A stretch of DNA of 64,000 nucleotides from Eubacteriales bacterium (lineage in GTDB: Bacteria > Bacillota > Clostridia > Oscillospirales > CAG-382), in assembly GCA_045544855.1 (NCBI GenBank), contig JAZPZV010000020.1, forward strand, positions 21,484-85,483. Reading direction: 5' to 3'. Made by a program: the position numbers and the translations under genes. Below, one piece after another: positions 3,559 through 26,142 of this stretch. A model generated the notes under the pieces. The model had not been told where the DNA came from. It worked only from the letters and a program-made list of their open reading frames with translations, and made no database searches. How positions within the stretch are numbered: the first letter of the stretch is position 1; each line of letters opens with the position of its first letter.

Positions 3559-4731
3559 ATGACATTGAAGAAAACGCTTTTGATCCTCAGCGCCTTGGTC
3601 TTTCTGCTTGCGGCAGGGGTAACCGCCTTGGCTATGCCCTTGGTCTCTCCTTGCTTCCCTGCTTCCGATGCTCCTTTGGAGACGGGGACCTTTCCCGTGG
3701 AATTTCACCCGGGGGATCTTGCCGTGGGAGCGGAAAGCGCCATCCTCATTGACGGGGACAGCGGCAGTGTGCTGTACGCCAAGAATCCCGACGAAAAACG
3801 GGGCATGGCCAGCACCACCAAGATCATGACGGCATATGTGATCCTGAACCGATTATCCCCGGAGACTGTGGTGGAGATCACCCCGGAAATGACGGGGATA
3901 GAAGGCAGCTCCCTGTACTTAAAGGCGGGAGAAAAGCTGACGGTGGAGGAATTGCTGTACGGTCTGCTTTTGGAAAGCGGGAACGACAGCGCCGTTGCCC
4001 TTGCCGTTGCCTGCGACGGCAGTGTGGATGCGTTCGCCAAGCGGATGAACGAGACTGCGGCGGAGCTGGGACTTGAAAACACGCGGTTTGCCAACCCTCA
4101 CGGGCTTTCTGCAGAGGGGCATTACACCACGGCGAGAGAGCTGGCGTTGCTCACGGCGGAGGCCTTGCAGAACGAGACCTTCGGGGAGATCGTTGCCACC
4201 TATCAGACCCGTATTCCCTACGAGGGCATCGAGGGCGGGCGGTATCTCACCAACCACAATCCCCTGCTGAAAGGCTACGAGGGTATGATCGGTGTCAAGA
4301 CGGGGTGGACCACCGCAGACGGCAAGTGCTTCGTCAGTGCGGCAAAGCGGGAGGGGATGACCCTCATTGCGGTGACTCTGGGAGATACGGGAATTTCCGC
4401 TACTCACAGGAAGCTGTTGGACTATGGCTTTGAACATTTTGAAAAACGCACCCTGACGGTGGAGACGCCCTTGCAATTGCCCGTGGTGGGAGGAGAAGCC
4501 TCCTTTTTGCAAGCAGAGGCGGAAACGCTCACCGTGACCCTGCCCAAGGGCGGAGAGACGGGTGTGAGAATAGAGACCCTGCCCTTTGTGTACGCAGGGG
4601 TTGCAAAAGGCACGTACTGCGGGAGGGCTGTCTTCCTGTGGGACGGCGTGGAGGTGGGCAGTGCGCCCATGGTCACGGCGGAAACGGTGCCTGTGAAGAA
4701 GATCTCCCTTTGGGAGAAATGGTTTGGATAA
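3559..4731 (+). CDS. D-alanyl-D-alanine carboxypeptidase (serine peptidase S11, PBP5-like)
   Basis: Signal-like N-terminus MTLKKTLLILSALVFLLAAG. SxxK (STTK), SGN (ESGNDSA) and KTG (VKTGWT) motifs. Confidence 0.85.
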   Translation: MTLKKTLLILSALVFLLAAGVTALAMPLVSPCFPASDAPLETGTFPVEFHPGDLAVGAESAILIDGDSGSVLYAKNPDEKRGMASTTKIMTAYVILNRLSPETVVEITPEMTGIEGSSLYLKAGEKLTVEELLYGLLLESGNDSAVALAVACDGSVDAFAKRMNETAAELGLENTRFANPHGLSAEGHYTTARELALLTAEALQNETFGEIVATYQTRIPYEGIEGGRYLTNHNPLLKGYEGMIGVKTGWTTADGKCFVSAAKREGMTLIAVTLGDTGISATHRKLLDYGFEHFEKRTLTVETPLQLPVVGGEASFLQAEAETLTVTLPKGGETGVRIETLPFVYAGVAKGTYCGRAVFLWDGVEVGSAPMVTAETVPVKKISLWEKWFG

Positions 4732-4735
4732 AACG

Positions 4736-5533
4736 ATGGACGTAAAACTGCAAAAGTACGTTTCCGACTGCGGGCTCATGTCCCGCAGGGCGGCGGAACG
4801 GGAAATTGAAGAAGGGCATTTTGCCATCAACGGGGTAAAGGCCAAGCTGGGGGACCGTGTGGAGCCCGGCAAGGACAAGGTCACTTACCGAGGCGAGGTG
4901 CTGAAGAAGAGCGGCAAAAAGGTGTATCTGCTTCTCAACAAGCCTGCGGGAGTGGTGACTACCATGCAGGATGAGTTGGGCAGAAAGACCGTATCGGAGC
5001 TGATCGACCTGCCGGGCAAACGGGTGTACCCCGTGGGCAGGCTGGATAAGGACAGCGAGGGATTGCTTCTCATGACCGACGACGGGGAGTTTGCCAACCG
5101 CATTTCCCACCCTTCCGGCGGGATCAAAAAGGTATATTACGTGATGGTGGCGGGCAGGATCGAAAACAACCAATTGGATTCTCTCCGTGCCATGCGGGTG
5201 CTGGAGGGCGAGCCCATCAATCCCGTTGAGGTGGAGCTGATGGAGCGGAGCGATAACGCCAGCAAGGTGCGGTTCGTTCTCTCCGAGGGAAAGAACCGTC
5301 AGATCCGCAGGATGTGCGAGGCTGTGGGGCTTTCCGTTATGCAGCTGCGCAGGGTGCAGATGGGAAATCTGCGGTTGGGTACTCTGGAATACGGCGCTTA
5401 TCGCCACTTGACGGACGAAGAACGAAAAGGCTTATTAAAACTCACGAACGAGGGAAAGATACATGGAAGAAATGACCTTCGAGCAGGCTCTGGCAAGGCT
5501 GGAGCAGATCGTAAAAGAACTGGAAGGCGGTAA
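4736..5533 (+). CDS. rluB: Pseudouridine synthase, RsuA/RluB family with S4 domain
   Basis: S4-like N-terminus (KLQKYVSDCGLMSRRAAEREI) and catalytic VGRLDKDSEGLLLMTDDGE. Basic C-terminal tail overlaps xseB. Confidence 0.85.
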   Translation: MDVKLQKYVSDCGLMSRRAAEREIEEGHFAINGVKAKLGDRVEPGKDKVTYRGEVLKKSGKKVYLLLNKPAGVVTTMQDELGRKTVSELIDLPGKRVYPVGRLDKDSEGLLLMTDDGEFANRISHPSGGIKKVYYVMVAGRIENNQLDSLRAMRVLEGEPINPVEVELMERSDNASKVRFVLSEGKNRQIRRMCEAVGLSVMQLRRVQMGNLRLGTLEYGAYRHLTDEERKGLLKLTNEGKIHGRNDLRAGSGKAGADRKRTGRR

Positions 5534-5684
5534 CGTTCCGTTGGATGATCTCATGCGCCTTTACGACGAAGGCACTACCCTGGTAAAGGCTTGTACGGAG
5601 AAGATCACCGCCGCCGAGCAGAAGGTACGCCTGGTGCAGATGAAGAACGGCACCGTCACCGAGGAGGCGTTTGAAGGACAATGA
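5463..5684 (+). CDS. xseB: Exodeoxyribonuclease VII small subunit
   Basis: 73 aa with TFEQALARLEQIVKELEGGNVPLDDLMRLYDEG, typical of XseB. The stop overlaps the ispA start (ATGA). Confidence 0.85.
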   Translation: MEEMTFEQALARLEQIVKELEGGNVPLDDLMRLYDEGTTLVKACTEKITAAEQKVRLVQMKNGTVTEEAFEGQ

Positions 5685-6574
5685 GCTTGTTTGCTACACG
5701 GTTGTCCGACCACGCGGCCTTGGCCAACAAAGCCCTGGCAACGCTGTTGCCCTCCCGTGAGGACGGGTACGATAAGATCCTGCGGGAGGCCATGGCCTAT
5801 TCCGTTGAAAACGGCGGAAAGCGGCTTAGGGCCCATCTGGTGATGGAATTCTGCGAGCTTTGCGGCGGCAATAGGGAGGCTTGTCTCCCCTACGCCGCAG
5901 GCATTGAGATGATGCACGCATTCTCTTTGATCCACGACGATCTCCCCTGCATGGATAACGATACCCTGCGGAGAGGAAAGCCCACCAACCACGTGGTATA
6001 CGGCGAATCCACCGCCCTTTTGGCGGGAGACGCTTTGTCCCTGCTGGCATTGGAGACGGTGGCAAACAATCCGTCCTGCAACGATGCCGAGAATCTTGCG
6101 GCGGTGAAGCTGTTGGCTTCCTATGCCGGATGCTTTGGGATGTGCGGAGGACAGCAGATCGATCTGCAAAGCGAAAACAAGCAGATCTCCATGGAAGAGT
6201 TAGAGGCTCTGGTAAACAAAAAGACGGGTGCGCTTTTTGCCGCCGCCTGCGAGCTGGGGTGCATTGCCGCCGGCAATGACGAAAAGCGGCGGGAATTGGC
6301 AAATCGGTTCGGTTTGACCACCGGGCTGGCTTTCCAGATCGCAGACGATCTTTTGGATCTCCGTGCAGATATATCCACTTTGGGAAAGACTCCCGGGAAG
6401 GATGCGGAAAGCGGGAAATCCACCTTCGTTTCCCTTTTGGGGGAAGCGGAGGCTTACGACTATGCGTCCACCCTTTGCAAGAAAGCAAAGGAGCTGTTGG
6501 ACGGCTTTGGCGACAGCGAGGCAAAGGAATCGCTGTGTGCCTATTGTGATTACATCATCACAAGAACTTATTGA
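5681..6574 (+). CDS. ispA: Farnesyl/geranylgeranyl diphosphate synthase
   Basis: First Asp-rich motif IHDDLPCMDNDTLRRGKPT and second motif FQIADDLLD. Confidence 0.9.
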   Translation: MSLFATRLSDHAALANKALATLLPSREDGYDKILREAMAYSVENGGKRLRAHLVMEFCELCGGNREACLPYAAGIEMMHAFSLIHDDLPCMDNDTLRRGKPTNHVVYGESTALLAGDALSLLALETVANNPSCNDAENLAAVKLLASYAGCFGMCGGQQIDLQSENKQISMEELEALVNKKTGALFAAACELGCIAAGNDEKRRELANRFGLTTGLAFQIADDLLDLRADISTLGKTPGKDAESGKSTFVSLLGEAEAYDYASTLCKKAKELLDGFGDSEAKESLCAYCDYIITRTY

Positions 6575-6579
6575 CGCAG

Positions 6580-7190
6580 ATCTACGCAGGGTGACCTGCC
6601 TGATCATAAACCTGAAAAGATGGCGCAGTATCCTAGTTAACCAAGTACCGTCGAACGTGTGCCTAAAAACGCACGAAACGGCAAATCGATGAAGCTCCTT
6701 GTGCTTGCTTCTTACGCCCAGTCTGGGGTGGGTGCTGGGAGAAATGGGCCGGTGGGCCGCTCGCAATGGCATGCGATACAAGGTCCCAACGGCTTTGGAG
6801 GCTTTTTTCTGTGGGCACGGAATTGACCGTTTCACCTACAGTCTAAAGATTAAACCCATTACGCGGTGCGATGTTTTCGACGCTGTGGATGGTGTAGCCC
6901 GCCTTGAGTGAGTGCAGCGGATGATCTTCCCTCTTTGGGGAATTTCTGAAATTGTAGTTGCAAAAAAGGATTAGGCGGCGCGAGGTTATTGAGGAAATCT
7001 CCTAGGCTGAAAATCACAGGCGCGAAGCGGATTGCAGTGCGGACTCTCTTAGGCAATCAAGCCCCGGATACAGTAATGTACCGGCGTCGGTTTTAATGGG
7101 GAACCGCCTTTCGGTAACGGAAGGTAACCGCATCGGGGAAAACCTGCTTGACCGTATGCCGCAAAGTTTACGCTTCGCGTCGCCATCAAT
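6580..7190 (+). ncRNA. ole: Probable OLE-class large non-coding RNA (boundaries approximate)
   Basis: About 610 nt with no credible ORF between ispA and an oapA-like gene. The order xseB-ispA-gap-oapA-dxs-tlyA-nadK-argR-recN matches the published OLE locus. Local stems are visible. Not verified with a covariance model. Confidence 0.6.
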
Positions 7191-7191
7191 G

Positions 7192-7746
7192 TCGCTTCGC
7201 TCTCACTGCGAAGCACACGGCTTCGCAGTGATTTTCGCCCTGCTTCCGCGCAGGGCGGGCCCCTCACGGGGTTCGCAACAAGTTGCGAATTTTTCTCGCT
7301 CGTTAGCCACGGCGAGAAAAACTGTTATCGGTGTCTTTTCATGCGGAATGAATCCGCATGAGCGACGCAATTATTATCGCTTCGCTCTCACTGCGAAGCG
7401 CACGGCTTCGCAGTGATTTACACGTCCCTTCCGCGGGACGTGAGCCCCTCACGGGGTTCGCAACAAGTTGCGAATTTTTCTCGCTCGTTAGCCACGGCGA
7501 GAAAAACTGTTATCGGTGTCTTTTTGCCCGAAATGAATTCGGGCAAGCGACGCAATTATTATCGCTTCGCTCTCACTGCGAAGCGCACGGCTTCGCAGTG
7601 ATTTTCGCCCTGCTTCCGCGCAGGGCGGGCCCCTTACGGGGTTCGCACTACGTGCGAATTTTTCTCGCTCGTTAACCACGGCGAGAAAAACTGTTATCGG
7701 TGTCTTTTTGCCCGAAATGAATTCGGGCAAGCGACGCAATTATTTA
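7192..7746. repeat. Three tandem 185-bp units, each built of six hairpins
   Basis: Unit starts (TCGCTTCGCTCTCACTGCGAAGC) at 7192, 7377 and 7562. Stems of hairpins B, D and F differ between units by compensated changes. Confidence 0.95.
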
Positions 7747-7769
7747 TATGCGCTACGCGCGTTAAGGGA

Positions 7770-7848
7770 CTTCCCGAAAACGGTAGTTTTCGGCAGGGAA
7801 AGTTTTTTGGAGTTTTTAAGGACCTTTTTTTCAAAAAAGGTTCTTAAG
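7770..7848. repeat. Two-module palindromic element (CCGAAAAC-N4-GTTTTCGG plus AAGGACCTTTTTT/AAAAAAGGTTCTT)
   Basis: Hairpins at 7774-7793 and 7816-7848. The same two modules recur at 16126, 34562/34620 and 49218/49326. Confidence 0.8.
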
Positions 7849-7876
7849 AAAGGGTCTGAAGAAAAGGATTATCAAA

Positions 7877-8449
7877 ATGTCTATATTGAAGAAAAACAAC
7901 GAATCGGGGAAAGAGCCTCCCAGTAAAAAGGATGCGAAAAAAAAGAGCAGGGTAAGATGGGTCGTAACGGCATTTCTTGTGAGCTTTGTCATCTCTGCCG
8001 TGTTTTCGGTAACTATGGGAGAGGTCACGGCGAACGCCAACATTGTCGTTGCCATTTTACTGCTGCTTTTCTTTATTGCGCTGGGTATTTTGTTTGACGT
8101 AGTGGGACTTGCCGTGGCAACGGCGGATGCCTCCCCCTTCCACTCCATGGCGGCAAGAAAGCTCCGTGCGGGGAAAAAGGGTGTTTGGCTGGTGGCCAAC
8201 TCCGACAAGGTGTCCTCGGTGTGTAACGACATCGTGGGTGATATCTGCGGCGTCGTGACGGGTGCGGCGGGTGCCGCCATCGTTGCCAAGCTGTTTGCCG
8301 ACGGGGCGTTTTGGTACTCCCTGGCGGTGACCTCCCTGATCTCCGCCATCACGGTAGGAGGCAAGGCGGCCTGCAAGAACTTTGCCATGAAGCACAGCGA
8401 AAACATCGTCATGCTGGTGGCAAAGGCTATGTGTTTGTTCAGAAAATAA
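7877..8449 (+). CDS. oapA: OapA-like small multi-pass membrane protein (OLE-associated protein candidate)
   Basis: 190 aa with a Lys-rich N-terminus followed by about four hydrophobic helices. Sits between the OLE-like gap and dxs. Named from synteny only. Confidence 0.6.
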   Translation: MSILKKNNESGKEPPSKKDAKKKSRVRWVVTAFLVSFVISAVFSVTMGEVTANANIVVAILLLLFFIALGILFDVVGLAVATADASPFHSMAARKLRAGKKGVWLVANSDKVSSVCNDIVGDICGVVTGAAGAAIVAKLFADGAFWYSLAVTSLISAITVGGKAACKNFAMKHSENIVMLVAKAMCLFRK

Positions 8450-8479
8450 GGAGACCTGCCCCGAAGGGCGGGAAAGAGT

Positions 8480-10348
8480 ATGCTGGAATCCATCCACTCC
8501 CCCGAAGATCTGAAAAAGATCCCAAGGGACGAGCTTTTAAATTTGACCAACGAAATACGGGAAGAGCTGGTGCGGGTGGTGTCGGAAAACGGCGGCCATC
8601 TTGCCGCCAATCTGGGCGTGGTGGAGCTTACGGTGGCATTACACCGTGTGTTCGACTGCCCGACGGACAGCATCATCTTTGACGTGGGACATCAGGCCTA
8701 CGTCCACAAGCTTTTGACCGGGAGACGGGAGCAGTTTGCCACCCTGCGGAAGCATGGGGGGCTTTCCGGCTTCCCCAAGATCAGCGAATCGGAATACGAC
8801 GCCTTTGGGTGCGGGCACAGCTCCACCTCCATTTCCGCCGCCATCGGTATTGCCGCGGCAAAGCGGCTTTCCGGGGACGAAAGCTACACGGTGGCAGTCA
8901 TCGGAGACGGTGCTTTTACCGGAGGCATGGCCTACGAGGCTTTGAACAACTGCGCGGGAAATAACAAGCTGATCGTCATTCTTAACGACAATACCATGTC
9001 CATCGCCCGCAACGTGGGGGCAATGGATACATACCTCAACCGCTTCCGCAACAGCGGAAAGTATTTCCGTTTGAAGAGCCGTGTGAAGAGCTTTTTCCGT
9101 TGCATTCCCTTGGTGGGAAAAGGACTGGTGAAGCTGGCCACATGGGTGAAGAACCGGCTGAAGCATCTGCTGGTGCGGGAAAATTTCTTTGAACACATGG
9201 GGCTTTCCTATTACGGCCCTCTGGACGGAAACGACGAGGCTTTGCTGGAAACGGTTTTGAACGAGGCTAAGGAGGACGGGCACTGCAGTGTGGTGCATAT
9301 CCTCACCCAGAAGGGCAAGGGCTATTCCTACGCAGAGGCGCGTCCCGACCTGTTCCACGGCATCGGCAGGTTTGATCCCGCCACCGGTGAGCCTTATTCC
9401 TCCGGCGGGGGCAATTTCTCCGCCGCCTTCGGCAACGCCCTTTGCAGGCTTGCCAAGGAGGACAAGCGGATCTGCGCCATTTCCGCCGCCATGCCCGACG
9501 GCACGGGGCTTGCGGATTTTGCGGAGATCTTCCCGGACCGGTTCTTTGACGTAGGCATCGCAGAGGAGCACGCGGTGACCTTTGCCTGCGGTCTGGCGCG
9601 GCAGGGCATGAAGCCCGTATTTGCGGTGTATTCCACCTTCGCACAGAGAGCCTACGACCAGCTGATCCACGACGGGGCGTTGCAGAATCTGCCCATCGTC
9701 ATCGCTTTGGACCGCGCAGGTCTGGTGGGCGAGGACGGTCCCACGCACCACGGTATTTTCGACGTGGCGTTTTTGAATCAGATCCCCGGGTTCACGGTGT
9801 ATTCCCCCGAAACCTACGGGGAATTGGAGGTCTGTCTGAAAAAGGCTGTTGCGCTCCCCTCTCCCGCGGCGGTACGTTATCCCAGGGGGAAGGAAGCCAC
9901 CTGCACGCAGGAAGCCGTTTATGCAGACGATTCCCTGGCGGTGTACGATTACGGCAGTGATCCCGCCGTGGTGTTCTATACCTACGGCCGTTTTTCCGCA
10001 GAGGTGCGGCAGGCGGCCGAGACCCTTGCAGGCAAGGGCATTTCCGCAAGAGTGGTGAGACTGATCCGCGTGAAGCCCTTGGAGGTTTCCCGCTTGGCGG
10101 CCTACGCAGAGGGTGCAAGCCTTGTGTACGTGGCGGAGGAAGGCATTCGGGAAGGCGGCGTTGGGGAGACCTTGGTGTCTGCCTTTGCGGAAGCCGGTCT
10201 TTGCAGAAATACCCGTGTGTTCATCCGTGCCATTGCGGGGCAATTCCCCACCCATGGCACCACCAAGGAGCTGTTTGCCGATCTGGGCATGACCGCAGAG
10301 CAGATGGCCGCAGAGGCGGAAGGGATGGTGGGCAGTTTTGCGCATTGA
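8480..10348 (+). CDS. dxs: 1-deoxy-D-xylulose-5-phosphate synthase
   Basis: 622 aa. TPP motif GDGAFTGGMAYEALN and transketolase-like middle and C-terminal regions. Confidence 0.95.
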   Translation: MLESIHSPEDLKKIPRDELLNLTNEIREELVRVVSENGGHLAANLGVVELTVALHRVFDCPTDSIIFDVGHQAYVHKLLTGRREQFATLRKHGGLSGFPKISESEYDAFGCGHSSTSISAAIGIAAAKRLSGDESYTVAVIGDGAFTGGMAYEALNNCAGNNKLIVILNDNTMSIARNVGAMDTYLNRFRNSGKYFRLKSRVKSFFRCIPLVGKGLVKLATWVKNRLKHLLVRENFFEHMGLSYYGPLDGNDEALLETVLNEAKEDGHCSVVHILTQKGKGYSYAEARPDLFHGIGRFDPATGEPYSSGGGNFSAAFGNALCRLAKEDKRICAISAAMPDGTGLADFAEIFPDRFFDVGIAEEHAVTFACGLARQGMKPVFAVYSTFAQRAYDQLIHDGALQNLPIVIALDRAGLVGEDGPTHHGIFDVAFLNQIPGFTVYSPETYGELEVCLKKAVALPSPAAVRYPRGKEATCTQEAVYADDSLAVYDYGSDPAVVFYTYGRFSAEVRQAAETLAGKGISARVVRLIRVKPLEVSRLAAYAEGASLVYVAEEGIREGGVGETLVSAFAEAGLCRNTRVFIRAIAGQFPTHGTTKELFADLGMTAEQMAAEAEGMVGSFAH

Positions 10349-11072
10349 TCTGTTTCTTGCGGAAAACGGCTATTGCAAAAGCCGCTCCAAGGCTGCGGAA
10401 GCCATTAAGGAAGGCCGTGTTCTGGTAGGCGGCAAGCCTGTGGAAAAGCCCTCTTTCCTTGTGGAGGACGGCATGGAAGTGACGCTTCTGGAAACGGAGG
10501 AGGAAGGCTTCGTCTCCCGTGCGGGGTACAAGCTGGAAGGGGCGCTGAAGGCCTTTGGCGTAGACGTTTCCGGCATGACCGCCGTGGACCTGGGTGCTTC
10601 CACCGGGGGCTTTACCGATTGTCTGTTGCAAAGAGGCGCCTCCTACGTGTACGCCGTGGACGTGGGACACAGCCAGCTGGACGAAAAGCTGCTGTGTGAT
10701 GCCCGTGTAAAAAATATGGAAAAAACCAACGCACGGTACTTGAAAAAGGAAGATTTTGCCCGTCCCGTGGACATTGTGGTGACGGACGTTTCCTTTATCT
10801 CCCAAAGACTTTTATACCCCGCCGTGGGGGACATTCTCCCTGTGGGCGGGCTCTTTATCTCCCTGATCAAGCCCCAGTTCGAGGTGGGAAAACAGCACGT
10901 GGGAAAGGGCGGCATCGTCCGTGATCCCCGTGGAAAGCTGTTTTGCAATCTGCTGGAGGCGTTGAAGCTTGAGGGAAGCAATCACGGATTAAAGCTTTTA
11001 TCATACACCGACTCCCCCATTTTGGGCGGGGACGGCAATCGGGAATACCTGGCCTATTGGCGGAAGGAGTGA
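10338..11072 (+). CDS. tlyA: TlyA-family rRNA 2'-O-methyltransferase (hemolysin A-like)
   Basis: S4 N-terminus (RIDLFLAENGYCKSRSKAAEAIKEGRV) and SAM motif VDLGASTGGFTDCLL. Confidence 0.85.
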   Translation: MRIDLFLAENGYCKSRSKAAEAIKEGRVLVGGKPVEKPSFLVEDGMEVTLLETEEEGFVSRAGYKLEGALKAFGVDVSGMTAVDLGASTGGFTDCLLQRGASYVYAVDVGHSQLDEKLLCDARVKNMEKTNARYLKKEDFARPVDIVVTDVSFISQRLLYPAVGDILPVGGLFISLIKPQFEVGKQHVGKGGIVRDPRGKLFCNLLEALKLEGSNHGLKLLSYTDSPILGGDGNREYLAYWRKE

Positions 11073-11078: not shown

Positions 11079-11909
11079 ATGCTGTACAAAACCATACTGC
11101 TGTATCCCAATCAAAGCAGACCGGTGGATCGGCGTGACTTTGAGAAGGTAGCTTCCCTGCTGTCGGGCATGGGGTACACCCTGTTCACCTCGGACAGCTC
11201 CTTTGCCACCGATGAGATCCGTTATCTCCCCACCCACGCCGCCTACTCCGGCTGTGATGCGGTGGTGGTGTTGGGCGGTGACGGCACCATGCTTGCCGCC
11301 GCACGTCTGGCAAGAAAGACGGGGATCCCCTTGGTGGGCATCAACTTCGGCACTTTGGGCTATATGGCGGAATTGGAAATTTCGGAATGCCACCTGCTGG
11401 CAGGGCTGGAGGAAGCGGGCATCGAGGAGCGTATGCTTTTGGATGCCACCGTGGAAGGGGAAGGCGTTCCCCTGCAGACCATGACGGGGTTGAACGAGGC
11501 GGCGGTCTGCCGTGCCGTTCCCGGTACGCTGATCCGTTTGCGGCTGTTCTGCGACGGCAACGAGGTCTGCTCTTACCGCGGGGACGGGATGATCGTTTCC
11601 ACCCCCACAGGCTCCAGCGCATACAACCTTTCCGCAGGCGGGCCCATCATCGATCCCAAGCTGAACGCTTTTTGCGTGTCTCCCCTGGCGCCCCACACCC
11701 TGGCGGCCATGCGTCCCATGGTGTTCTCCCCGGACTCCGTGCTTACGGTGGAGATCGAAGGAGATGCCTCCGTGGCGGTGGACAGCAACCTCTTCCCTGT
11801 TTTGAAGGGCAAGAGCCGCCTTACGGTGAAGCAGAGCGAGGACAAGGTGAAGCTTTTGAAGCTGAAAAACGCAGGCTTTTACGAAGCGCTGATGAAGAAA
11901 CTGACGTAA
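11079..11909 (+). CDS. nadK: NAD kinase
   Basis: GGDGTML motif, later NEA and STPTGSSAYNLSAGGP motifs. Confidence 0.9.
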   Translation: MLYKTILLYPNQSRPVDRRDFEKVASLLSGMGYTLFTSDSSFATDEIRYLPTHAAYSGCDAVVVLGGDGTMLAAARLARKTGIPLVGINFGTLGYMAELEISECHLLAGLEEAGIEERMLLDATVEGEGVPLQTMTGLNEAAVCRAVPGTLIRLRLFCDGNEVCSYRGDGMIVSTPTGSSAYNLSAGGPIIDPKLNAFCVSPLAPHTLAAMRPMVFSPDSVLTVEIEGDASVAVDSNLFPVLKGKSRLTVKQSEDKVKLLKLKNAGFYEALMKKLT

Positions 11910-11930: not shown

Positions 11931-12401
11931 ATGAAAAACAAACGACAAGCAGCCATTCTGGAGCTGATCGAGAATAACGTGGTGGACACCCAGGAGCTTT
12001 TGCAGGAAATGCTGGCGGCAAGGGGCTTTTCCGTGACCCAGGCCACCGTTTCCAGAGATATCCGAGAGCTGAATCTGGTGAAATCCATCGGAGAGGACGG
12101 GGTGTATAAATACCGTGCCCAAGTCTCCCCCAGGAAAGAGCGGCAGATGATCTCCGACACCTACATTCCCATTCTGCGCCACGCCGCCACCGGGGCGGAA
12201 GCCGCCGGCAATCTGGTGGTGGTCAAGACCCGTAACGGCATGGGCAACGCCGTGGGTGCAGCCCTGGATGCCATTGCCATCCCCGAATGCGTGGGCACGC
12301 TGGCGGGGGACGACACCCTGCTGATCATCGCCAAAACACCCGAAGGTGCAGAGAGGATCTGCAACGACCTGTGCAGAATGATCTTCTCCGACCACGATTG
12401 A
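11931..12401 (+). CDS. argR: Arginine repressor
   Basis: 156 aa. Winged-helix N-terminus (KRQAAILELIENN..VTQATVSRDIREL) and C-terminal GTLAGDDT motif. Confidence 0.9.
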   Translation: MKNKRQAAILELIENNVVDTQELLQEMLAARGFSVTQATVSRDIRELNLVKSIGEDGVYKYRAQVSPRKERQMISDTYIPILRHAATGAEAAGNLVVVKTRNGMGNAVGAALDAIAIPECVGTLAGDDTLLIIAKTPEGAERICNDLCRMIFSDHD

Positions 12402-12432: not shown

Positions 12433-14097
12433 ATGCTGACATCCCTTCATATCGAAAACATCGCCCTGATCCGTAGGCTTGATCTTGAGCCCGCGGCGGG
12501 GTTTTGCGCCTTTACGGGGGAAACCGGTGCGGGCAAAAGCATTCTGATCGATGCCATCGGTCTTCTTTGCGGTGCCAGAGGAGAGCGGGAGCTGATCCGT
12601 TCGGGAGAGGAATCCGCTTTGGTGGAGGGGGTATTCGATTGTCCCGTCCGCATGGAAAAGGCCTTGGAGGAGCTGGACGTTACCCCCGAGGAGGACGGGC
12701 TGCTGTTTTTAAGCCGCAGGCTGACGGCCGACGGCAGAAGCACCGCCAAGATCAACGGCAGAACGGTGCCTCTCGCCAAGCTGAGAGAGGTTGCGGCGTT
12801 GCTTTTGAACATCCACGGTCAGCAGGACACCCAAAGCCTTGCCTCCGAGGAAAAGCAGAGGGTGCTTTTGGATCTGTTCTGCGGAAACGAAGGCCTGTTG
12901 GAGGAGTACGGCAGAATTTACGGAGAATGCCGTGCCCTGCAGAGAGAATTGAAGGAAAGAAAAGAAAAAGCGGAGGATCTGGCGGAACGCAGAGATCTTC
13001 TGGAATATCAGGTAAGAGAGCTGAAGCAGGCCAAGATCCGCCCCGGTGAAGAGGCGGAGCTGACGGCGGAGCACGCTCTGCTTGCCAACAGCGAAAAGGT
13101 GACGGAAAACGCCCACGAGGCCTACGGTGCTTTGTACGGCAATGATCTTTCCGCCATGGCACAGCTGAAGACCTCCATGCAGGCGGTGAAGCGGTTGGCT
13201 TCCATTCTGCCCGAGTGCAAGGAATACTTTGCACGGATGGAGGACGTGAAGGCAGAGCTGACGGACATTGCGGAAAGTCTGTTGCCCTACGCCGACCACA
13301 TGGAAAACACGGCGGAACGGTTGACGGTGGTGGAAAACCGCTTGGAAAAGCTTTCCGCATTGGAACGGAAATACAGGACCGACGAAGCGGGGCTGGCGGA
13401 AAAGCTGAAAAAGGCCTCCGCAGACCTGGCACTTTTGGAAAACTGCGGGGAGGATTGCCTGCAATTGGAAAAGGCGCTTAAGGAAAAGGAAGCCCTTCTG
13501 AAGGAGGCGGGTGCGGCCTTACGGCAGGCCCGTATCCGCGGAGGGAAGCTTCTTTCGGAGCGGGTGCAGGAAGCTTTGGCAGAGCTGGATATGCCCAAGG
13601 TGCGGTTCGTGATCTCCGTGGAAGAAGGAGCTGCCACCCCCGACGGTATGGATGCCATTGACTTCTCCGTCAGCGCCAATGCGGGAGAAGCGCCCCGTCC
13701 CATCGGAAAGATCGCCTCGGGTGGTGAGCTTTCCCGTATTATGCTCTGTCTGCAATGCGTTTTGGCAGACGTGATGGAGACCCCCACCATGATCTTTGAC
13801 GAGATCGACACCGGTATTTCCGGCAAGACCAACGAAAAGATCGGGCGGATGATGGCACAGATCGCCTCCGGCGGCAACACCCAGGTGATCTGCGTCACCC
13901 ATGCGGCACAGCTGGCGGCTTGCGCTTCCCATCAGTACCGCATTTCCAAGAAGGAAGAAAACGGCAGAACCCAGACGGAGGTCCTGCTTCTGAACAGAGA
14001 AGAACGGATCGGGGAGCTTGCCCGCATTATGGGCGGTCTGCAGGTGACGGATACCGTTCGGAAGGCGGCAGAGGAACTGCTGGACGGTGGGGCATGA
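12433..14097 (+). CDS. recN: DNA repair protein RecN
   Basis: Walker A FTGETGAGKSILIDA, long coiled-coil middle, signature ASGGELSRIML and Walker B MIFDEIDTG. Confidence 0.95.
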   Translation: MLTSLHIENIALIRRLDLEPAAGFCAFTGETGAGKSILIDAIGLLCGARGERELIRSGEESALVEGVFDCPVRMEKALEELDVTPEEDGLLFLSRRLTADGRSTAKINGRTVPLAKLREVAALLLNIHGQQDTQSLASEEKQRVLLDLFCGNEGLLEEYGRIYGECRALQRELKERKEKAEDLAERRDLLEYQVRELKQAKIRPGEEAELTAEHALLANSEKVTENAHEAYGALYGNDLSAMAQLKTSMQAVKRLASILPECKEYFARMEDVKAELTDIAESLLPYADHMENTAERLTVVENRLEKLSALERKYRTDEAGLAEKLKKASADLALLENCGEDCLQLEKALKEKEALLKEAGAALRQARIRGGKLLSERVQEALAELDMPKVRFVISVEEGAATPDGMDAIDFSVSANAGEAPRPIGKIASGGELSRIMLCLQCVLADVMETPTMIFDEIDTGISGKTNEKIGRMMAQIASGGNTQVICVTHAAQLAACASHQYRISKKEENGRTQTEVLLLNREERIGELARIMGGLQVTDTVRKAAEELLDGGA

Positions 14098-14627
14098 CTT
14101 GGTTGAAGACCCACAAAAAGCAGGTGTTCACCTGGCTGTTGATCCTTGCCACCCTGGGATGTCAGATCTTTATCTTCTCCAACTCCCTGCGGGACGGAGA
14201 AGAATCCGCCAAGCAAAGCGGTATCGTGGTGGAGCTGGTAAAGCCCCCTGTGGAACAGCTTTTGCCCGTCGTGAAGGTAGAGCCCACGGAGCAGAACATC
14301 GTGCGCTTCGTGCGGAAGGCGGCACACTTTTTGGAGTTTGCCCTGCTTGGCTGTCTGTGCTGTTTTACGGCACGGCGATTTACGGAAAAGAAAGGGTTGT
14401 TTTTGACCTTGCCTTTGGGATACGCGGTGCTTACCGCCTTTGCGGATGAAGGGATCCAACTCCTTTCCGCAGGACGGGCAGGCAGGCTGACGGACGTGCT
14501 CATCGACAGCGCAGGCGCTGTGACGGGGCTGTTGTTCGCCTTTGGCTGTCTGGCACTTTGGGGGTATTTCCGCAAAAGGAAGGACAAAAACAAGGTTACC
14601 CACAAAAATACGGAGGAAATGAAATGA
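14094..14627 (+). CDS. VanZ-family membrane protein
   Basis: ATG overlaps the recN stop (ATGA). Motifs KAAHFLEFALLG and DEGIQLLSAGRAGRLTDVLIDSAG. Confidence 0.75.
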   Translation: MTWLKTHKKQVFTWLLILATLGCQIFIFSNSLRDGEESAKQSGIVVELVKPPVEQLLPVVKVEPTEQNIVRFVRKAAHFLEFALLGCLCCFTARRFTEKKGLFLTLPLGYAVLTAFADEGIQLLSAGRAGRLTDVLIDSAGAVTGLLFAFGCLALWGYFRKRKDKNKVTHKNTEEMK

Positions 14628-17407: not shown

Positions 17408-17714
17408 TTTGTTTCCTTTCTTCTCATAAACCTGTCTGTCATCTCATCGCCGTCACGGATGGAGCGTAACCGTGGCGGCGTCCTTCTTTTTCAAACAACG
17501 AACATCTGTTCTTGTTCGGTAAATGGAGTATAGCACAAAAATTCCCCCTTGTCAAGGGGTTTTTGCTTTTTGTACACATTGCACAAAAAAACGGTCGACC
17601 CATGTCAAAAATGCAGAAATTTGTCCACAGGACATTTTTTCATGCTTTGTTTCTTGTTTCTTCACATTTTCTATGGTAAAATAAAGAAAAAATGACTTGA
17701 AAGGAGTGTCTTTT

Positions 17715-20321
17715 GTGAAGAAGACGTTATCTTTGGTTCTTTGCCTTGCTTTGCTTTCGGTGGTGTGTCCCGTCTTTTTCACCGAAGAAGCCGTGGCGTG
17801 CGGACCGTACCCGGGGGAATCGTATTACGAACAAGGGTATGAAGAGTATGAAAACGGCAGATATTCCTGTGCCGTTAAGGGAGACGAGGCGGTTCTGCTG
17901 CATTACAAGGGCGTCTTTGGCCAAACGGAGATCGTTGTGGATGCCAATATCGGTCCCTACAAGCTGGTTGAGATCGCCGACAACGCCTTTGAGGGTTGCG
18001 GCGCCAAGCGGGTGGTGATTCCCGAGGGCGTAGTGGAAATGGGCGATGGGGTATTTGAACAAAGCTCTGTGGAAGAGATCGTTCTCCCGAACAGCTTGCG
18101 GGTCATTCACGGTGCATTCACCAACATGGATCAGATTGAGAAAATCGTGATCCCCGAGGGTGTGGAGGAACTGTACGACACGGTGTTCTCCAACTGCGAG
18201 AAGCTGAAGGAAGTGACCCTGCCTTCCACGCTGAAAAGCGTTGTAAATCTGTTCAGCAATTGTCCTTCCATAGAGACTGTGGTGTTGCCGGAAGGCTTGG
18301 AAGTCATGGACGGCTACGTTTTCTATTTGTGCGACAGCGCAAAATCTCTTATCATTCCTTCCACGGTACGTTCTATGAGCTACGCTCCCGTGGTAGGCTG
18401 CGACAGCTTTGAATCGTTGTCTGTAGCCCCGGGAAATGAAAACGTAAAGCTGGAAAACGGATGCCTCATCACCTCCGAGGGAGTGTTGGTGCAAGGCTTC
18501 TCGGGATGTGTGATCCCCACGGAGGGGTTGGCTGCCATTGGCGGCAGTGCCTTCTACCACGCAGATTGGCTGGAAGAGATCACCATTCCCCACGGCGTGA
18601 CATCCATCGGCGCAGGTGCTTTTATCGGATGTAATAACTTGACCAAGGTAGTTCTGCCCCGGGGGCTTACACAGATAGGAGTATCCGCATTCTCCGGCTG
18701 TAAGGCTTTGAAAGAGGTCGCGCTTCCCGACAGCGTTGAAAGCATTGGAGACACTGCCTTCACCGGCTGTAAGCAGCTGGATCTGAAGATGCCGGCCGGC
18801 TTGAAGTCTGTGGGGGAAAGCGCATTCAGAAACACAGCCATTACCTCCGCCATCTTCCCCGAAACACTGGAATTTCTGGGAGAACAAGCGTTAAGAGATT
18901 GCGAGCAGTTGGAAGTCCTTCATCTTCCCGCAGGGCTGAAGAGCCTGCCTTGGCTGCTCACCTCAGGATGCACAAATGTGAAGGAGCTGGTATTACCTGC
19001 CGGCTTGGAAACCTACGAGCCGGGTTCGTTCAGCTATATGCCCAATCTGCAGAAAGCGGAGCTGGACGAGAGCAATCCCAACTTCTATTTGAACGGCTTC
19101 TGCCTGATGAGTAGAGACGGCACGCTTTTGGCGGCGCTCTCAGGTGGCGATATCCCGAAAGAGACGAAGGTTATCGGCAAGCAAGCCTTCCGGCACTTTG
19201 TTCAACATGAGCCCCTGTTCCTTCCCGAAGGCGTGGAACGCTTGGCATCGCAGGCTTTCGACCAAGCGGACGTACCTGAGATCGTTTTGCCCGCCTCGTT
19301 GAAAATAATTGATGATTATGCGTTTTATTATGCAAATATCGAAAGCCTTTACATTCCCGCCACGGTAGAGGATATGGGATATAATCTGTGTCAGGGCTGC
19401 TTCTACCTACGTCAGGTGGATATGGGATATGAGAAAAAACCCGACGGATGGGAGGACAGAATGACGCTGAGCTTTGGCGGACGAGTTGTCTGGAACGTAA
19501 ACTCCCGCCGCACAGACATCTATAAGGTCAGCGGTGATTTCCGATACGAGATAGTAGATGGCGAAGCTCATATCGTAGAGTATCTGGGCGATGCCACCGA
19601 GTTGGTGATCCCCGAGACCATCGACGGCTACAAGGTAACGGTATTGGGAATGAAAGCATTGGAAGATCAAGCTAAGCTTACTTCCATCACCTTGCCGAAC
19701 ACCATCCATACTCTCGAAAGGAATTCCATTGATGGTTGCGCTTCCTTAAAGGAGCTGATTCTTCCCAACAGCGTAAAGACTCTGAAACACTGTGCCATTT
19801 GGGACTGCGAAAGCTTGGAATACGTATATATCCCCAATGTGACAACGGTGGGATCCCAAGCCATTGACTATTGCACTAACCTGAAAAAGGTGGAGTGTGC
19901 GCCCACAAAACAACCTGCTTCTTGGGACGATCGCTGGCACGGTTACGTTTCCGAGATCGAGATCGTTTGGGGCGTTCCCCATCCCAATGAGGAGGATCCT
20001 GTGGATCCGCCCGTGGAGCCGATTGATCCGCCGGAGGTTTCGGAGGAAGTGAGCGAAGAGGTTTCCGAAGAGGTTTCGGAAGAAGTTTCGGAGGAAGTTT
20101 CCGAGGAAGAATCTGTGGAAGTTTCCGAGGAAGAATCCGAAGCGGTCTCCGAAGAAGAATCTGCGGCAAGCGAGGAGGAACAGACGTCCTCTGCCGAAAG
20201 CATCGCGGAAAGCGAGACGGAAGAGCCTGCAAAGGGCAGCTTCCCCTGGATTCCCGTGGGGATCGCCGTGGTATTGGTTGCCGCTGTGGCGGTGATCTTG
20301 GTTATCAGAAAAAAGAAATAA
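17715..20321 (+). CDS. BspA-type leucine-rich-repeat surface protein 1 with acidic EVSE linker and C-terminal TM anchor
   Basis: Probable GTG start 8 nt after AAAGGAG. Signal peptide, then many IPEGV..IG..AF..C..L..V.LP repeats. Tail is (EVSE)n plus TM plus RKKK. Confidence 0.85.
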   Translation: MKKTLSLVLCLALLSVVCPVFFTEEAVACGPYPGESYYEQGYEEYENGRYSCAVKGDEAVLLHYKGVFGQTEIVVDANIGPYKLVEIADNAFEGCGAKRVVIPEGVVEMGDGVFEQSSVEEIVLPNSLRVIHGAFTNMDQIEKIVIPEGVEELYDTVFSNCEKLKEVTLPSTLKSVVNLFSNCPSIETVVLPEGLEVMDGYVFYLCDSAKSLIIPSTVRSMSYAPVVGCDSFESLSVAPGNENVKLENGCLITSEGVLVQGFSGCVIPTEGLAAIGGSAFYHADWLEEITIPHGVTSIGAGAFIGCNNLTKVVLPRGLTQIGVSAFSGCKALKEVALPDSVESIGDTAFTGCKQLDLKMPAGLKSVGESAFRNTAITSAIFPETLEFLGEQALRDCEQLEVLHLPAGLKSLPWLLTSGCTNVKELVLPAGLETYEPGSFSYMPNLQKAELDESNPNFYLNGFCLMSRDGTLLAALSGGDIPKETKVIGKQAFRHFVQHEPLFLPEGVERLASQAFDQADVPEIVLPASLKIIDDYAFYYANIESLYIPATVEDMGYNLCQGCFYLRQVDMGYEKKPDGWEDRMTLSFGGRVVWNVNSRRTDIYKVSGDFRYEIVDGEAHIVEYLGDATELVIPETIDGYKVTVLGMKALEDQAKLTSITLPNTIHTLERNSIDGCASLKELILPNSVKTLKHCAIWDCESLEYVYIPNVTTVGSQAIDYCTNLKKVECAPTKQPASWDDRWHGYVSEIEIVWGVPHPNEEDPVDPPVEPIDPPEVSEEVSEEVSEEVSEEVSEEVSEEESVEVSEEESEAVSEEESAASEEEQTSSAESIAESETEEPAKGSFPWIPVGIAVVLVAAVAVILVIRKKK

Positions 20322-20355
20322 AGAAACTTTATTAAGATAGAAAGGGGTGTCTTTT

Positions 20356-22971
20356 GTGAAGAAGACGTTATGTTTGGTTCTTTGCCTTGCTTTGCTTTCG
20401 GTGGTGTGTCCCGTCTTTTTCACCGAAGAAGCCGTGGCGTGCGAGGGAGACGATTGGGGTGACAGATACCGCGAAGACGGATACGCAATAGAAGAGTTTG
20501 GAGACTACCGCCTTGCCATCAAGGACGGCGAGGCTACCCTGCTGGAATATTACGGATGGGAAAAAGACATCGTTATAGAGGCGGAAGTGGGCGGCTATCC
20601 CATCGTGGAAATTGATTCCATGGCTTTTGCCTACACCGTCCCGGAGACCCTTGTGATCCCGGAGGGTGTGAAAGAGATCGGCGGGTTCTATTTCTACAAC
20701 GGATTTGATTTAAGAGAGATCACCCTGCCCTCCACTCTGCGGGTCATCCACGGCGGGTTTGACGGCTGTGATGCCGTAGAGAAGATGGTGATCCCCGAGG
20801 GCGTGGAGGAAATGCACGGAACGGCTTTCTCTTATTGCGAAAAGCTGAAGGAAGTGGTTCTGCCCTCTACCCTGAAAAAAGTGGGCGGCTTGTTCATTGA
20901 ATGTCCCTACGTGGAAACCGTACTTCTCCCCGAGGGGCTGGAAGAAATCACAGGGATCATCTTCTACGACTGCGCCAACGCAAAATCGGTGGAGATCCCC
21001 TCCACGGTGAAGCACATGACCCACGCCCCTGTGGTGCGCTGTGAAAAGTTTGAAGAGCTGACTTTTGCCCCCGGGAATGAGTACCTACGGATGGAAAACA
21101 ACTGTCTGATCACCGCCGACGGCGTACTGTTGCAAGGCTACGAGGGCAGTTCCGTCCCCGCCGAGGGGATCACCGCCATCGGTGCTTACGCTTTCTGCTA
21201 CGCCGACTGGCTGACGGAAGCCATTTTGGGGGATGAGGTCACCTCCGTGGGAACCTGGGCGTTTTTGGGTTGTGAGAACCTGACCAAGGTCAGCCTTCCG
21301 GAAGGGATCACTGCAATTGAATCCCAGACCTTTCAAAGCTGCACGTCTCTGGCGGAATTCCGGATGCCTTCCACCGTTACAAAGATCGGTTCCTTTGCTT
21401 TCCACAAGTGCAAGGAGCTGTCCCACGTAGACTTCCCTCCCGCTTTGGAGGAGCTGGGAAGAAGTGCGTTCAACAATTCCGGCATCACCTCCGCCATCCT
21501 GCCGGATACCATCACAAGCTTGGGTACGGAAGTTTTTTACGGCTGTAAGAATCTGGAAACTCTGCGGCTCCCCGCCGGTCTGCCCGATCTGGGGGAAAGC
21601 TTGCTTTCCGGTTGCTCCAATTTGAAGGAGCTGGCGCTTCCCGAAGGAATTACCTCCATCGATCGCTTTGCTTTAAGCAATTTGGAGAAGCTGGAGAAGC
21701 TGCATTTGCCCTCCACCCTGGTAAACGTGGAAGGCGACTCCTTCGGAGCCATTCCCAATCTGAAGGAGCTGACGGTTGCGGAAGGCAATCCCGTTTTGTA
21801 TACAGAAGGTCCCTTCCTGATGAACAAAGACGGTACCTTGGTGCGTGCCTTTGCTTATGGGGAGCTGCCCGAGGGGATCACCACCATTGGCGGATACGCC
21901 TTCTACAACTGCTCCGGCTGGGACGTGTTTACCGTTCCCGAGGGTGTGGTCACCATTGAGGAGCACGCTTTCTACAGCGCCGCCGTGAACAGGATCGACC
22001 TACCCCGAAGCTTGAAAGAAATCGGGCAGTGCGCCTTCTCCCGTGCGGAGATCAAAAGCATCTTCCTGCCTGCTACCATCCAATCGCTGGACTATGACGT
22101 ATTTGAGCTTTGTTCTTGTTTGGCCACGATCTACGCAGAGCCTGCGGAACGCCCCTCCTTCTGGGCCAGTTGGGACGGTGACTTCAAGGGAACCGTGGTA
22201 TGGGGAGCAACGGGAATTCCCGATGACAACTTCCTGCGTAGCGGCGACTACCTCTACGATATCGTAGGAGACGGCGTCAGCATCCGCGCCTATCTGGGCG
22301 AAGCAACGGAGATCACGATTCCCCCGGAGCTGGGCGGATTGCCTGTGATCCAATTAGGAAACGGCGCATTCACGGAACAGCAGGCTTTGGTTTCCATTAA
22401 ACTGCCGGACACCTTGAAGCGCGTGGGCGACCAAGCATTCCAATACTGCTCCTCCCTTAAGGAGCTGGTCTTCCCGGACGGCGTGGAATACATCGGCAGA
22501 GACGCATTGTTCAGCTGTAACAGCCTGGAATATGTTTATTTGCCCGATGCGGACGTGGTCGGCACCGATGCAGTCTCCTATTGCCGTGAATTGAAGGTGG
22601 TGGAATGTGCGCCCAAGGAACAGCCTGCCGGATGGTCTTTGCGGTGGTACGCTGCGCTCCCCGCCGCCCAAATCGTTTGGGGCGTGAACGAGGAAGAACC
22701 CGTTGAGCCTCCCGTTGAGCCGGTTGACCCGCCGGAGGTAAGCGAGGAAGTGAGTGAAGAGGTCTCGGAGGAAGTTTCCGAAGAGGTTTCCGAGGAAGTG
22801 TCCGAAGAAGAAAGCGCCGAAGCAAGCGTGGAGGAACAGGTATCCTCCGCCTCCGGCGAGACGGTGAGTGAAACGGAAGAGTCCGACGGAGAGTTCCCCA
22901 AGATATGGATCGTTGTCATTGCGATTTTGGTTGCCATGGCAGTGGCCATCGTGATTTTGAGAAAGAAGTAA
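20356..22971 (+). CDS. BspA-type leucine-rich-repeat surface protein 2 (paralog)
   Basis: Same GTG start context and signal peptide as gene 1 and collinear LRR body. The track ORFs are 874 codons in both genes. Confidence 0.85.
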   Translation: MKKTLCLVLCLALLSVVCPVFFTEEAVACEGDDWGDRYREDGYAIEEFGDYRLAIKDGEATLLEYYGWEKDIVIEAEVGGYPIVEIDSMAFAYTVPETLVIPEGVKEIGGFYFYNGFDLREITLPSTLRVIHGGFDGCDAVEKMVIPEGVEEMHGTAFSYCEKLKEVVLPSTLKKVGGLFIECPYVETVLLPEGLEEITGIIFYDCANAKSVEIPSTVKHMTHAPVVRCEKFEELTFAPGNEYLRMENNCLITADGVLLQGYEGSSVPAEGITAIGAYAFCYADWLTEAILGDEVTSVGTWAFLGCENLTKVSLPEGITAIESQTFQSCTSLAEFRMPSTVTKIGSFAFHKCKELSHVDFPPALEELGRSAFNNSGITSAILPDTITSLGTEVFYGCKNLETLRLPAGLPDLGESLLSGCSNLKELALPEGITSIDRFALSNLEKLEKLHLPSTLVNVEGDSFGAIPNLKELTVAEGNPVLYTEGPFLMNKDGTLVRAFAYGELPEGITTIGGYAFYNCSGWDVFTVPEGVVTIEEHAFYSAAVNRIDLPRSLKEIGQCAFSRAEIKSIFLPATIQSLDYDVFELCSCLATIYAEPAERPSFWASWDGDFKGTVVWGATGIPDDNFLRSGDYLYDIVGDGVSIRAYLGEATEITIPPELGGLPVIQLGNGAFTEQQALVSIKLPDTLKRVGDQAFQYCSSLKELVFPDGVEYIGRDALFSCNSLEYVYLPDADVVGTDAVSYCRELKVVECAPKEQPAGWSLRWYAALPAAQIVWGVNEEEPVEPPVEPVDPPEVSEEVSEEVSEEVSEEVSEEVSEEESAEASVEEQVSSASGETVSETEESDGEFPKIWIVVIAILVAMAVAIVILRKK

Positions 22972-25609: not shown

Positions 25610-25957
25610 ATGAAATCGATGAAAACTATAGCTATTCTACTAACACCGCTTTTATTATTCGCTATCTTGTTTATTCCTTATAATTTAGCTAATCAACACT
25701 TTATTGTCGATTGGCTGGGCTGTGGCTGCCCTGTAATAGATGAAGCGGGCAATATGGTTGAAAACAACTTTAACGCTAATGATTTCACGGCATTATTTTG
25801 GTTAGTTATCTCTGTTTGTGTGGTTGCAATTTCGGTGTTTTTATCAAAAAGAATACCGAAAGAAAAGATGTGGTTCAGAGTTCTGTATATAGTAGGTATG
25901 CTTTTGATATCACTCGTGATAACTTATCAATTCTGCCAAATGATGATGTGGAAGTGA
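25610..25957 (+). CDS. Small membrane protein, low GC
   Basis: ATG 9 nt after AAAGGAG. Three hydrophobic helices. AT-rich codon usage unlike the flanking core genes. Confidence 0.6.
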   Translation: MKSMKTIAILLTPLLLFAILFIPYNLANQHFIVDWLGCGCPVIDEAGNMVENNFNANDFTALFWLVISVCVVAISVFLSKRIPKEKMWFRVLYIVGMLLISLVITYQFCQMMMWK

Positions 25958-26114
25958 CAAATTCCAATTTGTCGAGCTTAATAGGCGTTGAATGTTGGTG
26001 TGATTTTGGTGCAAATTTGGTGCAACACTTTATGCGACGATACTCACGATATTCACGATATCAAACGGTGTTCTTAAAACTCCAAGAGATAAGCGGTTTT
26101 TATTGGAAAATTCA

Positions 26115-26142
26115 GCACTCACGTTTGTGGGTGCTGTTTTTT
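26115..26142 (+). terminator. Terminator hairpin, copy 1 of an identical pair
   Basis: GCACTCAC-gttt-GTGGGTGC followed by TGTTTTTT. The same 28 nt recur at 27568. Confidence 0.7.

Follow-up and report, generated by a model that had tools for sequence, protein, structure and literature searches.

What lies between ispA and dxs in the genome of the Eubacteriales bacterium of assembly GCA_045544855.1? In the stretch analysed here, 64,000 nucleotides (nt) of contig JAZPZV010000020.1 (positions 21,484 to 85,483, forward strand; hereafter the window), the initial annotation had placed a probable OLE-class non-coding RNA at 6575-7191, and had read the membrane protein of 190 amino acids (aa) encoded further downstream as its partner OapA. 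OLE RNAs, catalogued in about 2,800 Bacillota genomes (PMC11332333), are among the largest bacterial non-coding RNAs and their biochemical function is still unknown, so that a correct annotation is worth having; an annotation limited to proteins would leave the ole region blank. We are highly confident that the plus strand of 6604-7202 is an OLE RNA gene, and that 7877-8449 encodes its membrane partner OapA. Direct observations carry this conclusion, namely the membership of the RNA in the OLE family, its conserved elements, the features of OapA and the gene context.

Rfam was scanned first over 5000-10000, then over the whole window. The search with the Rfam OLE covariance model, which the initial annotation had proposed as a check, returned a full-length match on the plus strand, far above the gathering score of 50: RF01071 aligns to 6604-7202 with 361.7 bits and an E-value of 9e-104 to about 1e-102. 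Base pairing counts along with sequence in such a model. The match spans positions 1-616 of the 616 in the model, without truncation, and its 599 nt are in line with the length criterion of about 600 nt used for OLE. No other Rfam family rose above its gathering score in the 64 kb, and ARAGORN found neither tRNA nor tmRNA in the window. The proposal of an OLE-class RNA in the ispA-dxs gap is thus borne out, and the coordinates given for it were nearly right. As this is a known, curated family that standard tools detect, the novelty of the ole finding is low.

Might the interval instead code for one or more small proteins? Open reading frames (ORFs) of 55-211 aa, called mechanically, do overlap it on both strands. 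The initial annotation had seen there only ORFs of 60-70 codons without a recognisable product. The stated lengths have to be corrected, as the edges of the interval are overlapped by one ORF of 211 aa on the minus strand (6200-6835) and by two others, of 109 aa (6363-6692) and 106 aa (7096-7416). None of the nine ORFs across 6200-7926 gave a Pfam match at E ≤ 0.1. Against coding we also count the match to a 616-position RNA model at E of about 1e-102, and the fact that substitutions across 40 homologues preserve base pairs. Taken together, a protein-coding interval appears scarcely credible.

Loci of relatives are designated here L001 and so on. One genome per species was scanned with the two most conserved peptide blocks of OapA. 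The scan gave 80 loci, mostly from metagenome-assembled genomes (MAGs) of Oscillospiraceae and other Clostridia, with Sporobacter termitidis and a Thermosediminibacteraceae MAG also represented. The subset of OapA-anchored loci scanned with Rfam numbered 40. To check stem pairing, motifs and segment lengths, 40 OLE RNAs were aligned with MAFFT; the invariant columns of this alignment, among them CUAAAAA, GCCCA, AUGGCAU, GUAGCC, GCAAAA and GGGAAA, are shared by the window RNA. The P-numbers used below were assigned to Rfam helices by ourselves, from the text of PMC9723947 and PMC12265935.

From its 5' side onwards, the window RNA displays the landmarks of the family. The Rfam consensus hairpin at 6655-6674, which we assign to P4, carries the A-rich loop CCUAAAAA (6661-6668), and CUAAAAA shows no variation in the 40 OLE RNAs; P4 is a published dimer contact of OLE RNA (PMC12265935). 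At 6685-6741, AUCGAUGAAG (J4a/5) is followed by the long P5/P5.1 hairpin with its loop GCCCA, in agreement with the Rfam consensus. J4a/5 contributes to the k-turn that has been published as the OapC site (PMC9723947, PMC12265935). The P5.1/P6.1 loop pair is intact, with GCCCA on one side and, on the other, its partner loop CAAUGGCAUG (6765-6774) in the P6.1 hairpin UCGCA-AUGGCA-UGCGA (6761-6776). The P6.1 stem, the only helix tested singly for covariation, was paired in 93% of the cells of the 40-OLE alignment, with compensatory changes in 4 of its 5 pairs. This consensus hairpin is one of three local stems pointed out in the initial annotation (TCGCA/TGCGA, 6761-6765 with 6772-6776). The other two do not belong to the conserved structure: in the same alignment, CCUAGG/CUUAGG was paired in 48% of the cells without any compensatory change, and ACCG/CGGT, 71% paired, likewise had no compensatory change and is shifted relative to the hairpin that the Rfam consensus has there. 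By the Rfam alignment and motif checks, the GAGGAAAUCUC hairpin and the domain from P12 to P15 are intact as well. In particular, the P13 hairpin CCGG-A-UACA-GUAA-UGUA-CCGG (7064-7084) has kept both the GNRA tetraloop and the one-nucleotide bulge that OapB binding needs (PMC7936274), and the tip of P14a is likewise a GNRA loop, GUAA.

The second partner, oapA (7877-8449, plus strand), is preceded by the ribosome-binding site AAAGGA at 7863-7868. Its 190-aa product matches PF01595 (CNNM) with 30.4 bits, barely over the cut-off of 28.4. OapA is described as a distant CNNM relative that scores under true MpfA proteins, and a DxxxD motif is distinctive for it (PMC11332333). In the window protein this motif is D118-IVG-D122; none of N117, D118, G121 and D122 varies among 23 aligned homologues, and neither does the C-N-D-x-x-G-D-I block. 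Further traits ascribed to OapA are four predicted transmembrane helices and the lack of a proline that CNNM domains conserve. The AlphaFold (AF2) model is all-helical (pLDDT 81.4, pTM 0.70), with long helices at residues 15-53, 56-82, 109-139 and 145-172, whereas simple hydropathy gives three clearly hydrophobic stretches and a fourth helix that is only weakly so. The N-terminus is basic, and prolines occur at residues 14, 15 and 87 only. The top PDB matches by Foldseek were archaeal CorB (7m1t/7m1u) and the transmembrane domain of bacterial CorC (7cff/7cfg), with a probability of 1.00 and TM-scores of 0.49-0.56 on the query; CorB 7M1U is also the published top fold match of the OapA model from Halalkalibacterium halodurans. 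Sequence searches with the protein found 1206 homologues at E ≤ 0.001, mostly unnamed Clostridia metagenome proteins, and in a collection of 5.8 billion sequences the best match was 90% identical, none being identical. An NCBIfam scan yielded chance-level matches only, with no OapA model among them, and a sequence search of the PDB yielded nothing meaningful.

Linkage to OLE is the operational definition of OapA. A full-length Rfam OLE match was found just upstream of the OapA homologue in 39 of the 40 loci, the lone exception being L046, from an 'uncultured Bacilli' MAG, with no OLE within 2.5 kb. In L056, also an 'uncultured Bacilli' MAG, OLE is at 1-288, about 1.8 kb upstream of the oapA match (2077-2595). 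With the DxxxD motif, the borderline CNNM match, the CorB/CorC fold and this linkage, the identification of the 190-aa protein as OapA, already made in the initial annotation, holds. The closest locus is L006 (MAG Oscillospiraceae bacterium SIG690), whose protein is 96% identical and whose DNA is about 91% identical over 5402-8500; the window therefore comes from a related species outside the collections searched. The OLE matches of the closest relatives L001 (358.7 bits) and L006 (354.9 bits) are nearly identical to that of the window, which supports the OLE assignment. The nearest loci in general come from Oscillospiraceae or Clostridia MAGs of gut and rumen samples.

The gene context points the same way. 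In the classic ole gene order of H. halodurans, the usual cluster has xseB-ispA upstream and dxs-tlyA-nadK-argR-recN downstream, an arrangement for which PMC10898510 gives support in part. Pfam matches of the window proteins confirmed the order that the initial annotation had read around the 190-aa protein. On the plus strand, xseB (5463-5684, Exonuc_VII_S) and ispA (5681-6574, polyprenyl_synt) precede the RNA, and oapA is followed by dxs (8480-10348), a tlyA-like gene with S4 and FtsJ methyltransferase domains (10338-11072), nadK (11079-11909), argR (11931-12401) and recN (12433-14097). The order from dxs to recN is the same in the relatives L001 and L002. The OLE match begins a mere 29 nt past the ispA stop, and the simplest inference is that ole would be transcribed together with xseB-ispA.

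Two features set this locus apart from its relatives, the first being the P9 stem. P9 (6900-6972) is shortened by about 30 nt and has no self-complementary tip loop, both in the 40-OLE alignment and in the Rfam alignment, in which 13 nt stand in place of 41 model positions. The P9 segment measures 66 nt in the window OLE, 62 in L001, 65 in L006 and 61 in L007, against 91-99 nt in the other 36 OLE RNAs (the value for comparison being 94). P7 is also reduced, to 54 nt where the median is 68, and P8 is not (43 against 43). A self-complementary motif at the P9 tip was present in 36 of the 40 RNAs, of which 33 carry GGCC and 3 carry UAGCUA. In cryo-EM structures, a fourth dimerisation contact was reported at the symmetrical loop of P9 (PMC12265935), so that a clade whose OLE is naturally without the P9 tip bears on the need for that contact. 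Natural OLE variants with reduced P7-P9 have been described, and the tip is not needed for family membership (PMC11332333); such variants are regarded as presumably functional (PMC11332333, PMC12265935).

The second feature is the spacer between ole and oapA. The membrane protein had been taken to follow a gap of 617 nt, but the gap from ispA to oapA is in fact 1302 nt, and a repeat array in the remaining 685 nt (7192-7876) had been passed over. The order ispA-ole-oapA-dxs is present with an unusual spacing: OLE ends 674 nt before oapA, where L006 has 328 nt and the other loci have 0-180 nt. Positions 7192-7744 of the plus strand are taken up by a 185-nt unit of six hairpins, repeated three times head to tail. 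Folding of 7192-7876 then gives two more plus-strand hairpins ahead of oapA. The first (7770-7808), CUUCCCGAAAAC-GGUA-GUUUUCGGCAGGGAAAG followed by U6, resembles a terminator and may act as one; the second (7816-7847) directly precedes the ribosome-binding site of oapA. L001, L002, L003 and L006 have kept both hairpins, with some covariation, the stem at 7816-7847 changing from GGACC/GGUUC to GAAAC/GUUUC in relatives. A terminator scan passed over the hairpins described in the spacer, because their stems are interrupted by internal loops or poor in G-C pairs. The two hairpins ahead of oapA make one ask by what route this clade transcribes oapA and dxs, and the spacer of repeats and terminator, which breaks the usual tight linkage of ole and oapA, bears on how the two genes are co-expressed.

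Several observations weigh against the assignment of an OLE gene working with the OapA next to it. The window OLE, L001 and L006 have the three lowest scores of 42 OLE matches (355-362 bits against 375-534, with 358.7 for L001 and 354.9 for L006). The P9 tip motif is absent from the window OLE, as it is from L001, L006 and L007 in the 40-OLE alignment. The terminator-like hairpin and the 674 nt between ole and oapA mean that co-transcription of the two cannot be assumed. A promoter scan of 5300-8600 found no sigma-70-like promoter on the plus strand, and two marginal minus-strand matches at repeat junctions are at chance level. Finally, and more weakly, no OapB-like (KOW) or OapC-like (L7Ae) protein was found among window ORFs of at least 90 aa, a cut-off that OapC, at about 80 aa, falls below; the genes for these proteins need not be nearby.

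The low scores, the truncated P9 without its kissing loop, and the repeats and terminator-like hairpin between ole and oapA are what one would expect of a decaying, non-working relic of OLE, cut off from its partner gene. Such decay is very improbable in our view. The same architecture recurs at about 90% nucleotide identity in two separate MAGs (L001 and L006), and the more distant L007 shares the short P9. Apart from P9, every conserved loop is preserved and so is the P13 site, oapA is undamaged and retains its invariant motifs, and OLE variants with shorter P7-P9 are, as said above, presumably functional. We thus keep to the reading of an OLE RNA gene with its OapA partner, and consider that the window ole is an ordinary example of a known RNA, save for its short P9 and its repeat-filled spacer.

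What, then, is the repeat unit in this spacer? Tandem Repeats Finder reported a period of 185, 3.0 copies and 89% matches, and with R1, a covariance model built here for the unit, the three window copies scored 168-176 bits. In an alignment of 16 unit copies, 98.4% of the cells were in standard pairs, both-sided changes were seen in 19 of 49 pairs and one-sided changes almost nowhere, figures that overstate independence since the copies are related and the alignment was fitted to its own covariance model. When partner columns were slid by 1-3 positions, pairing fell to 37-55%. Hairpin B illustrates this behaviour well: its stem exists as CGCCCUGC/GCAGGGCG, CACGUCCC/GGGACGUG, CGUGUUCC/GGAACACG and CGUGCCGC/GCGGCACG, while its loop is constantly UUCCGC. 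AAUGAAU is another conserved loop of the unit, and hairpin variants are shuffled among copies in a mosaic-like fashion. Hairpin D of each unit is followed by an invariant U-run, UUUUUCUC. Conserved G-U pairs are confined to the plus strand, which favours a structure formed by the sense-strand RNA (or by single-stranded DNA). The whole spacer folds with -342.7 kcal/mol (z = -13.8 against shuffles).

One copy of the unit is found at the same place in L001 (5722-5868), L006 (2204-2351) and L093, and at least two copies in L087, L089 and L091 (222-554), from independent ENA and JGI assemblies. These counts across independent assemblies indicate that the array is real and its copy number variable. 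Short-read contigs with a near-identical oapA (L002-L005, L087-L092, L094) mostly end 70-670 nt upstream of it, inside the unit, and public MAGs of the clade will as a consequence often miss or truncate ole. R1 detected no further copy in the 64 kb of the window and none in L007-L085, the 79 other OapA-anchored loci, a weak 16-bit match in L071 being disregarded. At E ≤ 5, Rfam gave only chance-level matches for the unit (7150-7900). Plasmid and phage collections (blastn) and viral contigs (pattern scan) contained no match to the array.

Specific explanations of the array were considered and rejected. A CRISPR array does not fit 7192-7744, in which the whole 185-nt unit repeats head to tail without spacers. 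An RNA array of a type III toxin-antitoxin system would be expected to have repeats of about 34-45 nt, a terminator and then an endoribonuclease toxin gene, and we find a 185-nt unit and oapA. A protein-coding array is contradicted by a period that is not a multiple of 3 and by changes between copies that are compensatory in stems. The idea that the unit start (CGCUUCGCUC) competes with the 3' strand of P12 was dropped because L001 and L006 differ there.

The unit is not tied to OLE alone. A pattern scan of metagenome contigs revealed an extra copy in L086 (4630-4775, minus strand), a contig in which OLE was not found. The copy lies on the coding strand, where it immediately follows the gene of a sodium:solute symporter and precedes that of a D-2-hydroxyacid dehydrogenase. 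Among orthologous symporter/dehydrogenase loci, L095 has an intact unit (3734-3879, 162.7 bits) and L096 a degraded copy (85.3 bits). In L097, L098 and L099 no unit is present, and a plain hairpin with a U-run terminator is seen in the 108-nt gap. Its presence in L086 and L095 and absence in L097-L099 indicate that the unit is polymorphic and that it occupies a terminator position.

It is quite possible, and we hold to it tentatively, that we are dealing with a small intergenic repeat, restricted to a lineage and of the same kind as REP/BIME or pneumococcal BOX elements, with nothing specific to OLE. It would be transcribed within 3' untranslated or intergenic RNA, its hairpins would terminate or stabilise this RNA, and it would expand and contract by recombination of flanking direct repeats (UCGCUWCGC). 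Such a repeat accounts for a copy number that is one, at least two or three depending on the assembly, for the many short-read contigs that break within it, and for the second site, with its intact, degraded and terminator-replaced states. The invariant UUUUUCUC after hairpin D and the strand bias of the G-U pairs also agree with it. On the other hand, two genomic sites are few for such a repeat, with none elsewhere in the window or in L007-L085, and conserved loops on freely covarying stems recall a specific recognition element, of RNA or protein, rather than a generic terminator. Template-switch repair, for its part, can keep palindromes symmetrical without selection on RNA. We judge it unlikely that the unit represents a new class of structured RNA, maybe a variable 3' extension co-transcribed with OLE, or a new small mobile element that replaces terminators; no transposase was seen in association with it. 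The hairpin repeat is, at any rate, the only possibly new item at this locus, a candidate structured element with two genomic sites so far.

To return to the OLE gene and its OapA partner, what might they do in this bacterium? How the RNA is expressed and processed, its location at the membrane, the proteins bound to it and its part in physiology would be as in better studied members of the family, the OLE RNAs of H. halodurans and clostridia. The RNA of about 600 nt would arise from a long transcript that covers the ispA-dxs cluster, or be transcribed from a promoter of its own. It would then fold into some 25 helices and dimerise. An OapA dimer would bind it and hold it at the cell membrane, where OapB, on the P13 GNRA loop, and OapC, on the k-turn beside P5, would join the particle; in recent models, OLE stem P3 spans the bilayer (PMC12265935, PMC11332333, PMC9723947, PMC7936274, PMC10898510). 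The H. halodurans particle is needed for tolerance to ethanol, cold, high Mg2+ and poor carbon sources (same references), and the particle of this lineage may similarly help the cell withstand alcohol, cold, excess Mg2+ and poor carbon sources. In this lineage of Oscillospiraceae-like gut bacteria, the RNA retains the P4, P5.1/P6.1, k-turn and P13 elements, the outer part of P9 with its self-complementary loop has been lost, and an array of hairpin repeats with a terminator-like hairpin has been placed between ole and oapA.

Elsewhere in the window, an MgtC-family protein (41470-42174, minus strand) is encoded beside a protein of the Na+/H+ exchanger family (42192-43694, minus strand); OLE particles have been linked to Mg2+ tolerance. 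Two adjoining paralogues of 874 aa (17697-20321 and 20347-22971) each contain BspA-type leucine-rich repeats in six regions (LRR_5, about 357 bits). The tyrS ORF (50408-52087, 559 aa) has its synthetase domain only from residue 179, and its first 175 codons or so may reflect a mis-called start over a leader; Rfam found no T-box over the 5' region of tyrS. Five ORFs without Pfam match (14087-14449, 25798-26190, 28826-29149, 34866-35297 and 49581-50183) have a third-position G+C of 0.38-0.45, against about 0.7 in housekeeping genes, and may be spurious ORFs or foreign DNA.

How does the locus compare with known systems? As far as the unit is concerned, the type III toxin-antitoxin array is similar to it only in that repeats come first and a terminator next. 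Like the unit, enterobacterial REP/BIME elements and the BOX elements of Streptococcus pneumoniae are intergenic, hairpin-forming, modular or mosaic, variable in tandem number, and located at gene 3' ends. By comparison with their descriptions, the unit is much longer, contains six different hairpins, apparently has a very low copy number per genome, and is not known to resemble them in sequence.

The membrane protein is predicted to share its transmembrane fold with the CNNM-family Mg2+ transporters MpfA, CorB and CorC, but it has neither CBS nor CorC_HlyC domains, and it carries the DxxxD motif that CNNM domains lack. With OapA it has in common its position downstream of ole, a length of about 190 aa, DxxxD and the basic N-terminus, and like OapA it is distantly similar to CNNM and has a predicted fold close to that of CorB; its identity here is set by motif, predicted fold and gene linkage.

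Among OLE RNAs, that of the window resembles variant 1 of Fernando and Breaker 2024 (PMC11332333) in its shortened P7 and P9. The match is not complete, since in variant 1 P8 is shorter too and the P13 site for OapB is often missing, whereas the window OLE has a full P8 and the P13 site. From the full-length OLE (RF01071) of H. halodurans and Clostridium it differs by the short P9 without tip loop, by a P7 of 54 nt instead of the median 68, by its place in the group of lowest scores, and by the 674-nt spacing. It shares with them a length of about 600 nt, an end-to-end match to the model and a position between ispA and oapA-dxs, together with the A-rich P4 loop, the P5.1/P6.1 loop pair, J4a/5, the GNRA loop and bulge of P13 and the GNRA loop of P14a; its host belongs to the Bacillota, like theirs, and may be an anaerobe.

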